Positions 2,798 to 8,571 are shown, counted from the stretch's first letter. The stretch: 8,571 nucleotides of DNA from a virus (IMGVR_UViG_2571042263_000006), one strand, 5' to 3'. Made by a program: numbers and translations. Notes: a model not told the origin generated them from the letters alone.

Positions 2798-2866
2798 CAC
2801 TCGTTGCTTAAAACGGTATGTTATCCCCGTACGGATCATCGTTACCCGCCTGTTGTTTTGCCCTGT

Positions 2867-3043
2867 TCAGTGCGTCAGTAGCCTGGCCCTGCTGGCCTTT
2901 TTTACCACCTGGTCGGGATGTTCCTTCGCGTATCCTTCCCCCGCGTGGCGGTCTATCGTTCTGATTGCCACCTTTAAGGCGTGCTCTGTCATGTCTAACG
3001 CTTTATATTTTGGCTCTGTTCTGTCTCTGTGTTTTTGAGTCAT
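2867..3043 (-). CDS. Small basic hypothetical protein (58 aa) immediately after the iteron array
   Basis: The ORF-track version (2867-3175) starts at a GTG inside the iterons with no RBS. ATG at 3043 is preceded by GAGGTGG, which is itself the reverse complement of the first iteron. Lys/Arg-rich. Function unknown. Confidence 0.4.
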   Translation of the reverse strand: MTQKHRDRTEPKYKALDMTEHALKVAIRTIDRHAGEGYAKEHPDQVVKKASRARLLTH

Positions 3044-3045
3044 TT

Positions 3046-3247
3046 GCCCACCTCTACCCACTTTTTTCGCCCACTTTTTACGTTTTCCCACTTCGTCCAA
3101 CGTGGGAAATTTGGGATTTATATCATCTTGTTTCATAAGTATTTTTTTAGTGCCCACTTTTTGGGATATATACACGTGGGAAAGTGGGTAATTTTGTTAA
3201 AATTACGTTAAATTGCCCACCTTTCCCACTTTTAATGCCCACTTTTT
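3046..3247. repeat. Iteron array, candidate origin of replication
   Basis: Eight direct copies of (G/T)CCCAC(C/T)TT with core CCCAC at 3047, 3057, 3070, 3087, 3153, 3216, 3225, 3238, plus three inverted copies (GTGGG at 3102, 3176, 3184). Two iteron clusters flank an AT-rich spacer (3110-3150) and sit immediately 3' of the replication gene, overlapping its stop codon. Confidence 0.65.
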
Positions 3248-4655
3248 ACAGTGGTCCTACATCATCACCGTCAATGTAGATCACGTCGTCTTTTTCCAGT
3301 TTGGCTAACCATCGTTTAAGGTGTTTTGTGTCATACCCCAGCTTTTTCATATCGTCACGTAACAGCGGGATCGTGCACTTGTCGCCGTGCTGTGTGCGTG
3401 AACGTATGCACCCCCATAGCGCGGTATGGTTTTCCGTCTTGTTCCCTGCCTCCTCGATGCGCTCCAGTTCAACGGGAGGGCGCGGCTTATCCACCACCAC
3501 CAGCGACGTGATTAACTCCCCGTCAGCGTCGGTAAAAAGCTCCACCACCCGCAAATCATAGGCAGCCTCTTTGAGTTCCTCCGCGTCCTTCATTTTGGTG
3601 CATGAGATAACCAGCGCTTCGCTTCCTGCGTCCTCCCTGCGTATCCGGTATTCAGCATCCAGCGAAGCACGAAATGCACTGGAACCGCGCGCGCCTTTCG
3701 TCTCATCCTTGCCGGAATGGTGAACCACCAGCACCGTGGCCCCTGTGCGTCGTTTCAGTTCGTCACAACCACGGATAAACGCCCCCATATCACGGGAATC
3801 ATTTTCATCATTCCCACCAAAGCAACGCGCCAGCGTATCCAGAATAATCATGCGTACAGGTTTACCCGTTTCCCGCTCCACCTGACGGGCAGCGATAACC
3901 ATTTCATCAATATCAAGCGGGGCAGCCGGAAAGATGGGACGGTTTACCAGATACAGATTTTTCACCTGCTCACCGTGCACAACCTCCCAGGCTTTTACAC
4001 GACGCGGAACGCCGATACCGCCTTCACCAACCACATAGAGAACAGCGCCATGCGCCACCCTGCGGCCTCCCCACTGGCGGCCCGTGGAAACGTGACACGC
4101 CCACGATCCGGCAAGGAATGATTTATAGGAACCGCTCGCCCCGTATATGCTGCAAAGCGACGATGCCGGAATAATCCCCTTTACCACGTAATCAAGCTGT
4201 GTGTCGTATCCGGTAGATCCAACGCTCATCGGTAGCGTGGTTTTTCGCTGGGGGATTTTTTTCATGACCAGGCTTTCCCCGCGTTCCCATGCCTCCCTAA
4301 GCCGTGGAAGCTGGTCGCTCCATTCCTCCAGCAATTCGAAATTTTCAGAAAGTAGCCGCGCCTCCTGGACTCCGGCGATCGCCAGTTTCGTGGCGATGGT
4401 TAACAGCTGCGGCTCTTCAATATTTCCGGCGCGTATCACCGTCGCCCTGTATCGCCCATCATCAACAATCTGGAGGTTATCCAGTTCGCTTAACTGATAA
4501 CGCCCCAGATAAACGGGAGGGACTGGATCTCCTGCTTTTTTTGCCTGTGCAATGATGTAATGCTCTGCGAATGAATGAGCATCAATACCCGCAAAAATAA
4601 TCGCATCGGTGTATTTATCTTTCGGTAATCGTTTTACGTTCGGTGCCAGTTTCAT
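3246..4655 (-). CDS. Replication initiator: RecA-fold P-loop ATPase / helicase (RepA/DnaB-like, AAA_25-type) with N-terminal domain of unknown function and probable C-terminal origin-binding domain, 469 aa
   Basis: Walker A GASGSYKS (res 172-179), Walker B RMIILD (res 268-273), VVHHSGKD (res 310-317). AGGAG 6 nt upstream of ATG at 4655. Start overlaps the upstream stop (ATGA). Iterons lie directly downstream. Confidence 0.85.
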   Translation of the reverse strand: MKLAPNVKRLPKDKYTDAIIFAGIDAHSFAEHYIIAQAKKAGDPVPPVYLGRYQLSELDNLQIVDDGRYRATVIRAGNIEEPQLLTIATKLAIAGVQEARLLSENFELLEEWSDQLPRLREAWERGESLVMKKIPQRKTTLPMSVGSTGYDTQLDYVVKGIIPASSLCSIYGASGSYKSFLAGSWACHVSTGRQWGGRRVAHGAVLYVVGEGGIGVPRRVKAWEVVHGEQVKNLYLVNRPIFPAAPLDIDEMVIAARQVERETGKPVRMIILDTLARCFGGNDENDSRDMGAFIRGCDELKRRTGATVLVVHHSGKDETKGARGSSAFRASLDAEYRIRREDAGSEALVISCTKMKDAEELKEAAYDLRVVELFTDADGELITSLVVVDKPRPPVELERIEEAGNKTENHTALWGCIRSRTQHGDKCTIPLLRDDMKKLGYDTKHLKRWLAKLEKDDVIYIDGDDVGPL

Positions 4656-4951
4656 TTTTTACTCCTGAATCCGTTAATCATGGTTTTCAGCTTCTGGATG
4701 TTTGCCCGTGCCCTGGCGTTGCTGGTGGGCACGTTATGCGGCGCGGTCTGTACCAGAGAAAAATCACGCCGGAACTGATAAACAGGCATCACGCAATCAT
4801 ATTCGTAACCTTCACGGCGGTAGGTTACGCGCCGTTCTTCCACGCCCTTAATCATTACCGTGCCGCCGTACTGGTCGCGGTAAATATCACCGCGCGTAAA
4901 TTTAGGGTGAGTGTTGCCACTGGCAGTTAAGCCAGAATATTTAAGTTTCAT
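4652..4951 (-). CDS. Hypothetical protein, 99 aa (possibly DUF4222-like, with YRD and GYE motifs)
   Basis: GGAGA 9 nt upstream of ATG at 4951; stop overlaps the rep start. Contains IYRDQYG and REGYEYD; the DUF4222 link is from memory and unverified. Confidence 0.65.
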   Translation of the reverse strand: MKLKYSGLTASGNTHPKFTRGDIYRDQYGGTVMIKGVEERRVTYRREGYEYDCVMPVYQFRRDFSLVQTAPHNVPTSNARARANIQKLKTMINGFRSKK

Positions 4952-6379: not shown

Positions 6380-6589
6380 ATGAGCAAAAAATACCTATCC
6401 ACTGAAGAGATTTTCGCAGAACAACGAAGATTGCTTTTACAGAGCATTGTTGCACGCCAGAAAGAAAAGGCACACGCTAAACAAATGCCACCAAATACAG
6501 AACCAGCGCCTACAAAATTTGCGCTTGATGAGTTTCTCAATAAACAGCCCCGGGTAATGAAAGCTAACAGGAACCGCCCACCAGGCTGA
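6380..6589 (+). CDS. Hypothetical protein, 69 aa, downstream of the Arc-like gene
   Basis: ATG 57 nt after the Arc-like stop with only a weak AGGT RBS. Non-repetitive composition; no recognisable motif. Confidence 0.4.
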   Translation: MSKKYLSTEEIFAEQRRLLLQSIVARQKEKAHAKQMPPNTEPAPTKFALDEFLNKQPRVMKANRNRPPG

Positions 6590-6653
6590 TCACATTGCCC
6601 ACCAGCCAGCAAATCGCTATGATGGCTGGGCTTATGTTTAGTGTATTCCCACT

Positions 6654-6703: not shown

Positions 6704-6913
6704 TTACGCTGCCTTGCCTGAATTAATGCGATCCCGGCTTTTAACCCATTCCATAACCTCGGACAGCAGCCAACCTACAGAACGACCGCCCAGATTACGG
6801 CGTGACGGGAAATTCCCTTTTTTCTCCAGTTCATAGCGTGTAGTGCGACACACTCCAGTTAACTTACGACATTCATCCTCACGGATTACGCGATCTTCAT
6901 TTATTTCACGCAT
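6704..6913 (-). CDS. alpA: AlpA-family phage transcriptional regulator / excisionase-like DNA-binding protein, 69 aa
   Basis: Translation contains the AlpA-family core LTGVCRTTRYELEKKGNFPSRRNLGGRSVGWLLSEVMEWV. Positioned downstream of int on the same strand, as in CP4-57 and P4-like islands. Confidence 0.85.
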   Translation of the reverse strand: MREINEDRVIREDECRKLTGVCRTTRYELEKKGNFPSRRNLGGRSVGWLLSEVMEWVKSRDRINSGKAA

Positions 6914-7332: not shown

Positions 7333-8571
7333 TCAAGGATTTTGGGTGTAAATTCGCGGGGTCATAACAACGATTTTTTCATCATTGTTCTGGAGAAGCT
7401 CGAGACGGTCTACCCATAGATTAAGAGCATCACGTTTTGCATCAAGATAACGGGAGTGGTTATAGACTCGTTGCATCCCCGGCATCTGGTGGGCGGTAAG
7501 CTGCTCGACAATATGCGGATCCACGCCTAAATCGTTCAGCATGGTTGTAAATGTGTGCCGGATGTCATGCAACGACCAGGGGGCTTGATTAATGCGTCTG
7601 TGTGCCGTTCTTCCGTACTCTGCTACGGATGATTGCCCTTTCAGTTCTCCAAGCAATAAGCCCGTGTGCCTGTTCTTCTCCACCAGCTTCATGACAAACG
7701 GCAAGATCGCTTCCGGTATTGGCCTGAATATTGCTACCTTCGTTTTGCTGTGTTCTTTCGGCACAGTCCAGAGCATTTCTTTAAAATCCCATTCCTGAAC
7801 CTCGGAGCGTCTTAGCTCAGTGGTACGGCATCCAAAGACAATCAGAAGGCGAATTAAGGCGCTGTAGTACGGCGGGAAAATTTTTTCATCCAGTGCGCGG
7901 AGTAGCTCGCCAAGCTCCTTGTTTGTTAGCACTCGCTCGCTTATTTCTGCTTTTTTTCCCACATCACCTACGACCATATCATCAAGAACGTTACTGACGG
8001 CGTAGCGACGTTTACGGCAGTACTTAAGCGCCTGCTTGCATACCTGCAACAAAAAGCCGGCTGATACCGGATTACGCTTAGCAAGCTGGTCAAAACAGGC
8101 CAGCCAGTGGCGTAGCTCGCATTTATCCAGCGGCATAGCACCAATCTGGCTGATTATGTGCTTATTGATCCGGCTTTTCAGTGATTCGTGGTCAGTGCGC
8201 TTTTCCTTCGCGTATGACTCAAGCCAGTAAGTGATCGCGTCCTTAACCGTTACAGGTGCTAACGCTTCCTGCACTGTGTGATTAAGCTCATGGCGTGGAT
8301 TTTTCCCCTCTGCCAGCCAGGCGCGACACTGTGCCGCTTTTTCTCTGGCTGCTTTCAGGCTCAGATCGGGATAGTTGCCCAGTCTCAGGCGTTCCGGTGA
8401 TACCTGCCTGCCAGTTCCGGCCCTGTAAGTGAAATACCAGGTTAACAGGCCATTGGTTGAATGCCTTACGCTAAGGTTGCCACCATCATTAAAAAAGGTG
8501 TTTTTTGTGGTTGGTGATCCGCTTAATTTTCGTAAAAGAGTGTCGCTAAGTCTATGAATTGCCCTGCTCAT
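7333..8571 (-). CDS. int: P4-type tyrosine integrase (site-specific recombinase), 412 aa
   Basis: N-terminal arm-binding-type region (LSDTLLRKL...FNDGGNLSVRHSTNGLLTWYFTYR) and C-terminal catalytic motifs HDIRHTF (H-x-x-R) and VYNHSRY (Tyr nucleophile region). The first ATG is the last three bases of the window, so the true start could lie just outside. Confidence 0.9.
   Translation of the reverse strand: MSRAIHRLSDTLLRKLSGSPTTKNTFFNDGGNLSVRHSTNGLLTWYFTYRAGTGRQVSPERLRLGNYPDLSLKAAREKAAQCRAWLAEGKNPRHELNHTVQEALAPVTVKDAITYWLESYAKEKRTDHESLKSRINKHIISQIGAMPLDKCELRHWLACFDQLAKRNPVSAGFLLQVCKQALKYCRKRRYAVSNVLDDMVVGDVGKKAEISERVLTNKELGELLRALDEKIFPPYYSALIRLLIVFGCRTTELRRSEVQEWDFKEMLWTVPKEHSKTKVAIFRPIPEAILPFVMKLVEKNRHTGLLLGELKGQSSVAEYGRTAHRRINQAPWSLHDIRHTFTTMLNDLGVDPHIVEQLTAHQMPGMQRVYNHSRYLDAKRDALNLWVDRLELLQNNDEKIVVMTPRIYTQNP

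Follow-up and report, generated by a model that had tools for sequence, protein, structure and literature searches.

Replication origins of Gram-negative PICIs are located immediately 3' of the rep gene and comprise two sets of iterons arranged around AT-rich DNA (Fillol-Salom et al. 2018, PMC6092414). In EcCICFT073, a pri-rep-ori fragment drives plasmid replication, and deletion of either rep or ori impairs replication (PMC6092414). In SaPIs, 6-12 iterons in both orientations, with an AT-rich centre, follow directly after the rep ORF; these iterons of 5-6 nt are recognised by the C-terminal winged helix of Rep, a self-loading helicase, and origin and Rep form matched pairs (PMC9371898).

The DNA analysed here, a stretch of 8,571 nucleotides (the window), matches, at 100% identity, an island of ~9 kb that the E. 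coli MS6198 chromosome carries between cspD and clpS. Its segment 3046-3247 is, by analogy with the replicons mentioned above, very probably (with a probability of about 0.88) the replication origin of a PICI-type satellite, whose own Rep would act as initiator and helicase in one polypeptide. An iteron-type origin 3' of rep had already been proposed in a preliminary description of this DNA, and the position, the iteron sets, the AT-rich DNA, the conservation and the covariation reported below fit PICI origins. As in PICI and SaPI origins, the segment lies directly 3' of rep and contains short iterons in both orientations that flank AT-rich DNA. Satellite origins of this class have been described before; the new elements are the anatomy shared across the family, with its central convergent pair of iterons, and an apparent rule that connects one residue of the initiator with one base of the iteron.

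The island and its probable replicon among described systems

All the core genes of the island are encoded on the - strand. These include the genes for a tyrosine integrase (7333-8571) and for AlpA (6704-6913), a DUF4222 gene (4652-4951) alongside several small ORFs, rep (3246-4655), which encodes a 469-amino-acid initiator-helicase (Pfam AAA_25, RefSeq, phrog_2850), a gene of the phrog_1231 family, the first one downstream of the origin (2867-3043; E = 2.9e-23 over residues 1-46), and a gene for a 629-amino-acid fusion of a ClpP-like prohead protease and an HK97-type major capsid protein (259-2148). According to Pfam and RefSeq, the island has an integrase, alpA, a unidirectional operon, a phage morphogenesis gene, a size of ~9 kb (PICIs measure ~9-15 kb) and a chromosomal site of its own, and the phage satellite in the window, from E. 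coli, is of the PICI type. No portal or terminase was found in the ~9 kb island, which is therefore not a full capsid-forming PICI. The protease-capsid fusion sits where EcCICFT073-like islands carry a separate capsid gene, a head-decoration protein and sometimes TerS.

EcCICFT073 is built on the same scaffold, with int, alpA, small genes, DUF4222, the initiator gene, the origin gap, a small gene, ssb, perC and the capsid genes, and the intergenic origin spans ~200-290 bp in both islands (the EcCICFT073 gap measures 288 bp). The initiators differ, since that of EcCICFT073 is a 584-amino-acid 'DNA primase family protein' whereas that of the window is a RepA-type AAA_25 helicase, and the repeats differ as well, being of the GTCTACC type in an island near-identical to that of CFT073 (L003) and CCCAC in the window. 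The functional test found for a Gram-negative PICI origin refers to the EcCICFT073 replicon, with its other initiator family.

The likeness to SaPIs consists in short iterons that lie after rep around AT-rich DNA, and in the presence of a winged helix and a helicase within one initiator. However, SaPI Rep is an AAA+ (SF3/MCM-like) helicase, whereas Rep from the window has a RecA-fold AAA_25 core and falls outside the SaPI Rep family. No sequence homology between the two proteins was detected, and their shared design therefore looks convergent or modular. A further satellite-encoded multifunctional initiator-helicase is the P4 alpha protein, which binds short origin repeats through a C-terminal winged helix. 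Alpha combines a primase with an SF3 helicase and needs both ori and crr, which are kilobases apart; the window differs in its single compact origin, in the class of its helicase and in the lack of a primase domain. Because its ATPase core is of a different superfamily, Rep from the window was filed in neither the SaPI Rep nor the P4 alpha family.

Among plasmid replicons, RepA of RSF1010/IncQ belongs to the same Pfam family, AAA_25, as the Rep core, and IncQ oriV contains iterons adjoining AT-rich DNA. IncQ plasmids distribute iteron binding (RepC), helicase (RepA) and primase (RepB') functions over separate proteins and have iterons of 20-22 bp, whereas in the window a single polypeptide carries the helicase and a putative iteron reader, and the iteron core measures 5 nt. 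Repeated initiator-binding sites next to an AT-rich unwinding region are also a property of pSC101, R6K, RK2, F and P1. Nevertheless, the iterons of these plasmids are 17-22 bp long and regularly spaced by ~22 bp, unlike those of the window, and their initiators are WH1-WH2 (Rep_3) proteins without helicase activity, which operate with DnaA boxes and the host DnaB/DnaC. According to Pfam, Rep from the window contains no Rep_3/RepA-WH domain. The resemblance to plasmid iteron origins stated in the preliminary description is at most a loose analogy, as the length and phasing of the iterons are different and neither Rep_3 nor a DnaA box is found.

The Rep/ori region was matched in 1526 of 5426 complete E. 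coli genomes, at up to eight places per genome. The origin fragment alone was matched in 645 complete E. coli genomes, 29 of which carry the CCCAC-type origin of the window (at least 95% identity), and the sampled relatives of the CTCAC type are lower-identity matches to the origin fragment of the window. The phrog_1231 gene of the window is truncated by a deletion and fused in frame to other sequence. Compared with intact relatives, the deletion took most of this gene together with the N-terminus of ssb, two genes that usually come next after the origin. With this deletion so close to the origin, on its downstream side, the island gives the impression of partial decay, and MS6198 may have ceased to use the replicon. 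Intact phrog_1231 homologues in two relatives (L002 and L004) begin at the equivalent ATG, and the ATG of the gene in the window (3043) marks the limit of the origin on the left. Two pseudogenes are annotated by RefSeq in this region, an SSB fragment (2808-2921) and a 'hypothetical' one on the - strand (2906-3136). The latter starts within the origin and runs across the left iterons; it is very likely an artefact of annotation.

Anatomy and conservation of the iteron array

The iteron array takes up all of the intergenic DNA that separates the rep stop codon (3246-3248) from the start codon of the downstream gene (ATG at 3043). Within 3046-3247, CCCAC is present 11 times over a span of 3047-3242, with eight direct copies on the + strand (starting at 3047, 3057, 3070, 3087, 3153, 3216, 3225 and 3238) and three inverted copies on the - strand, which appear as GTGGG on the + strand (3102, 3176 and 3184). 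This means that 11 of the 26 copies in the whole window are concentrated in 202 bp. Dinucleotide-preserving shuffles of the whole window (n = 2000) yielded at most five copies per 202-bp stretch, and shuffles of the 202 bp only (n = 5000) gave a mean of 0.76 and a maximum of four, so that 11 copies were reached in none of the 2000 whole-window and none of the 5000 local shuffles. The repeats are real and far beyond what composition-matched chance produces. Re-scanning thus returned the same eight direct and three inverted copies as had been counted previously, and the comparison with shuffled sequence suggested at that stage sets 11 observed copies against five in the richest shuffle. The longer consensus of the iteron is (T/G)CCCAC(T/C)TTT, and CCCACTTT occurs six times in the window and never outside 3046-3247. 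The core comprises 5 nt (8-11 nt with its flanks), and the spacing within groups is irregular, from 8 to 17 nt.

From left to right, the iterons form three groups separated by two AT-rich spacers. The left cluster (3046-3106, + strand) contains four direct iterons (3047, 3057, 3070 and 3087) and one inverted iteron (3102); its edge lies 3 nt ahead of the ATG of the downstream gene, and it has positional homologues in relatives. Spacer 1 (3107-3151) is 80% AT and holds TTTCATAAGTATTTTTTTA, with which it is conserved among the E. coli relatives. According to nearest-neighbour calculations, it represents the least stable duplex inside the origin, with a dG of -30.8 kcal/mol for the 30-mer 3121-3150, compared with -40.7 on average across the window (sd 3.75), while the least stable DNA of the window falls outside the origin, at ~2640 and ~4934. 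Spacer 1 is a candidate for the unwinding region. It is followed by the central convergent iterons (3152-3190), one direct (3153) and two inverted (3176 and 3184), which are placed around GATATATACAC and are proposed as a nucleation or loading site. Spacer 2 (3191-3214), which is 88% AT, contains a small palindrome, GTAATTTT/AAAATTAC, that begins at 3188. The right cluster (3215-3247, + strand) is formed by three direct iterons (3216, 3225 and 3238), and the aligned relatives show no variation in its terminal CxCACTTTTTA, which adjoins the rep stop codon. The preliminary description had seen two clusters around one AT-rich spacer that overlapped the rep stop codon; the AT-rich DNA flanked by iterons is indeed there, with three groups and two spacers in place of two and one, and it is the T-tail of the last iteron, and not its core, that overlaps the stop codon.

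Some further features were observed in the same segment. The sequence TTTGGGAT(T/A)TATA is present twice within the origin, at 3110-3122 and 3160-3172, 50 nt apart. In single-stranded form, the origin DNA has an unusually stable fold (z = -4.1), which arises from pairing between 3171-3195 and 3210-3234, where the two inverted iterons can pair with two direct ones of the right cluster through 25-nt arms that are 72% complementary. A search of the window against Rfam gave no match.

The conservation of this architecture was followed in loci with Rep homologues (80 of them, one genome per species), loci from complete E. coli genomes and 11 loci retrieved through Rep variants. The total amounts to ~95 related loci, of which the 88 with an intact Rep C-terminus were used for the counts of architecture. 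In 84 of these 88 loci, a repeated NNCAC motif is present three or more times within the 260 nt 3' of rep, and 75 of the 84 have a convergent iteron pair situated 76-102 nt (median 88) from the rep stop, with cores 17-26 nt apart. The sequence between the convergent arms contains TATA or GTATAC in 73 of the 75 cases. Within the Enterobacterales, this architecture is present in Escherichia, Xenorhabdus, Pantoea, Serratia, Pectobacterium, Morganella, Kosakonia, Klebsiella and others, and it stays while the sequence between the iterons drifts across genera.

Variations are found at the level of individual elements. In the window there is a single element of the type iteron-TATATAC-inverted iteron, and three relatives (L091, L092 and L094) carry a second one ~290-330 nt downstream of the rep stop, where it directly precedes a ProQ-like gene; its arms are degenerate in L094. 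On the 3' side of the central direct iteron, TGGG or TGAGG is found, as CCCACTTTTTGGG in the window and CTCACTTTTGAGG in several relatives. This pattern, which would suggest a covarying half-site or a hairpin, is uneven between loci, as CTCAC is followed by GGGG or GGG in L098 and L100. Another member of the family is encoded by a circular sequence of 16,971 bp deposited as the K. pneumoniae plasmid pKp_Goe_795-4 (CP018459.1), which contains a Rep of the same family as that of the window, with Ser445, and six CCGCAC iterons. With an integrase, an AlpA-like gene, Rep, a capsid gene, a head-tail adaptor and a terminase, it is a satellite-like element, and its sequence presumably stems from a circular form that had been excised or was replicating.

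The initiator and its residue 445

From the perspective of its domains, Rep comprises an N-terminal domain (residues 1-126), an AAA_25 RecA-fold core (151-318) and a predicted C-terminal winged helix (~400-469). The core is the only Pfam match of the protein (E = 7.7e-44, residues 151-318), and neither the N-terminal 132-150 nor the C-terminal 72-90 residues match any Pfam or NCBIfam family, even at E = 10. RefSeq names the protein 'helicase RepA family protein', and it matches phrog_2850 along its full length. The nearest solved structure by sequence is that of RSF1010 RepA (1g8y), a weak match with E = 0.013; the AAA_25 RecA-fold core of RSF1010 RepA-type proteins, with Walker A/B, is present in Rep, for which hexamer formation and helicase activity are predicted. 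There is no primase domain, and the zinc-ribbon/Toprim part of longer members of the family (P0118) is absent. In Xenorhabdus loci, ORFs of ~700 amino acids are found upstream of the Rep stop.

The N-terminal domain, encoded at 4278-4655 of the window, is confidently folded and shares 46% identity with the start of an unrelated initiator, the primase-family protein of EcCICFT073. It recurs, with 46-57% identity, at the N-termini of plasmid-borne proteins annotated as DUF927, DUF5906 and P4-type primases. This shuffled module always adjoins a DUF4222 gene and has no Pfam match.

The AF2 model of full-length Rep is of mixed quality (mean pLDDT 69.5). The helicase core is modelled poorly, with pLDDT below 50 at 151-175 and 315-397, and Foldseek searches of the whole model against the PDB returned only meaningless multi-domain matches. 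Residues 400-469 are confident in this model, with three helices followed by a beta-hairpin, and the segment 398-469 (encoded at 3249-3464, - strand) reaches a pLDDT of 84.6 when modelled alone, with the topology H-H-H-beta-beta. The best Foldseek matches of this segment in the PDB are the winged helices of DtxR, IdeR, the MarR-type MepR and MexR, Fur and SelB, with probabilities of 0.97-1.0, TM ~0.6 and an rmsd of ~2.5 Å over ~64 residues, at E values of only 0.03-0.1. The prediction of a winged helix for the C-terminal domain is thus a confident one, and this domain is proposed here as the iteron reader. Binding of the iterons by the C-terminus of Rep, already suggested in the preliminary description, gains support from this model and from the covariation between the iteron core and residue 445 described below; the domain had been placed at residues ~420-469, and its C-terminal location holds with a better delimitation at ~400-469. 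His445 is encoded at 3321-3323 on the - strand (GTG on the + strand, corresponding to the His codon CAC) and lies at the N-terminal start of helix 3, which is the usual recognition helix of winged-helix domains.

Across the ~95 related loci, the iteron core changes together with the initiator, and it does so in every copy at once. Asn445 is accompanied by CTCAC (31 loci), His445 by CCCAC (13 loci), Lys445 by CCCAC inside CCCCCAC (31 loci), Ser445 by CGCAC (7 loci) and Gly445 by CGCAC (1 locus), in both cases in the form of CCGCAC, with L075 as the sole exception. On a neighbour-joining tree built without column 445, the Asn/His and the iteron T/C states each switch at least seven times, at the same seven places. 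The origins of the His and Asn types can be aligned position for position, with 82% identity of columns and the C/T switch in every copy. Near-isogenic pairs reveal the same association. The last 62 residues of Rep are identical in L093 and L092 save for His/Asn, and the iterons read CCCAC (8 copies) and CTCAC (10 copies), respectively. Rep of MDP9-27 is 98% identical to that of the window, yet it has Asn445 and all its iterons are CTCAC; the differences within residues 398-469 are H423N, K438R, T443V, H445N, L446M, K447R and D457A. A cognate specificity between Rep and iterons is in this way indicated indirectly, by covariation in ~95 loci that include near-isogenic pairs. At the other extreme, where a primase-type initiator takes the same position (L003, CFT073), the repeats are unrelated (GTCTACC/GGTAGAC). 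In L093 and L095, origins that are otherwise entirely CCCAC keep one CTCAC at the position farthest from rep, which could have been left behind by a switch away from Asn/CTCAC.

Contacts of Asn with adenine and of Lys or His with guanine are common between side chains and bases, and agree with the pairings of Asn with T:A and of His and Lys with C:G. Judged from these sequence comparisons, one amino acid of Rep, at position 445, appears to decide which iteron sequence is recognised. The wider proposal is that residue 445 sets the iteron that is read (CTCAC by Asn, CCCAC by His, CCCCCAC by Lys-Lys and CGCAC by Ser or Gly) and that a RecA-fold (SF4-like) helicase independently took up the winged-helix, self-loading design of the AAA+ Reps of SaPIs; taken as a whole, it is slightly favoured. 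Part of the seven switches may represent cassette transfers rather than co-evolution, because the coding region of the winged helix is ~100-300 nt from the iterons and recombination could move both as a unit.

The core is also found close to alpA, where CCCAC is present at 6577, 6598 and 6648, in all three cases without the T-rich flank. Two cores had been reported there previously, at 6596-6601 and 6638-6643, but no copy is present at 6638. Islands whose replicons are of the CTCAC or the primase type have conserved the block ATTGCCCACCAGCC (6594-6607); because these islands have differing initiators and iterons, the block is placed outside the Rep/iteron system. Additional Rep sites near alpA were considered and rejected, as the site is kept where initiators and iterons differ. 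The sequence GCCCACCAG is found twice in 6576-6605, 21 nt apart and just downstream of alpA, and its second copy lies in the block conserved among E. coli PICIs of any replicon type. This repeat could belong to a degraded Icd-like gene, or it could have a regulatory function.

Alternative readings and the proposed mode of initiation

Several functions other than that of a Rep-dependent origin can be considered for the array. The repeats could be operator sites through which Rep, or another island protein, controls transcription from rep into ssb, perC and the capsid genes, with no origin involved. The way in which the array fills the intergenic gap and stops 3 nt short of the next ATG would suit this function, as would the resemblance of the TATATAC inside the convergent pair to a -10 element; in addition, plasmid iteron-binding initiators often autoregulate too. 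However, a promoter/terminator scan of 2800-3500 detected neither a sigma-70-like promoter nor a - strand terminator, the sites lie 3' of rep and away from the rep promoter, and 11 sites with two AT-rich spacers far exceed the needs of an operator. Moreover, EcCICFT073 depends on the corresponding region for its replication (PMC6092414). An operator in place of an origin is improbable in view of these points, and a regulatory side-role of the repeats besides that of an origin is possible. An origin that is fired by an initiator from the host or the helper phage, with the iterons bound by a protein that is not encoded in the island, is more improbable still: although Rep has no primase domain and outside functions are needed anyway, the core switches with a single residue of Rep among islands of the same species, and 3046-3247 contains no DnaA box (TTWTNCACA), even with one mismatch allowed.

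A packaging signal of the pac or cos type, recognised by a small terminase or a redirecting protein, must be considered as well, given that small-terminase sites are often arrays of short repeats and that PICIs carry packaging signals of their own (PMC6092414). Against this, the repeat sequence tracks a residue of the Rep winged helix and not the morphogenesis module. CTCAC and CCCAC origins are found beside varied modules (capsid with decoration protein and TerS, ProQ-like, or the protease-capsid fusion), and the same downstream module is accompanied by unrelated repeats when the initiator is of the primase type, which makes packaging a highly unlikely function for the array. The least credible explanation sees the repeats as arising incidentally, from a coding sequence or from base composition by chance. 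Chance is excluded by the shuffles. An ORF on the - strand (2867-3175) and the RefSeq pseudogene 2906-3136 do cross the left cluster, but the downstream gene of the relatives begins at the ATG equivalent to 3043, only residues 1-46 counted from that ATG match phrog_1231, and the iterons are located on both strands and extend past any ORF.

With the array taken as the origin of the island, the following sequence of events can be proposed. Induction by a helper phage would turn on the alpA-dependent operon, and Rep would be made. By analogy with the SaPI and EcCICFT073 replicons, the winged helix of Rep would bind the 11 iterons (T/G)CCCAC(T/C)TTT, where His445, at the start of the recognition helix, would read the C:G pair at position 2 of the core. 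The clusters of direct repeats and the convergent pair around TATATAC could then serve as sites on which Rep oligomers form, and the adjoining AT-rich DNA would melt, as is likewise deduced from those two replicons. Helicase rings with a RecA fold, similar to RSF1010 RepA, may load themselves without a separate loader, again by analogy, and replication of the island would in this way depend on its own Rep. As Rep has no primase domain, priming would have to come from the host or the helper phage, and host enzymes would carry out elongation.

As regards annotation, these results give the true left boundary of the rep-ori unit and mark the RefSeq pseudogene that runs through the iterons as a very probable artefact. 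The proposed rule linking one residue of Rep to one base of the iteron is simple and testable, natural near-isogenic pairs are available for it, and it offers orthogonal pairs of initiator and origin for engineering. If it is true, the change of one residue together with a concerted change of the iterons would create a new, mutually exclusive type of replicon. Several related satellites could then replicate in one cell without cross-talk, which could explain how an individual E. coli strain carries several related PICIs without interference between their replicons.
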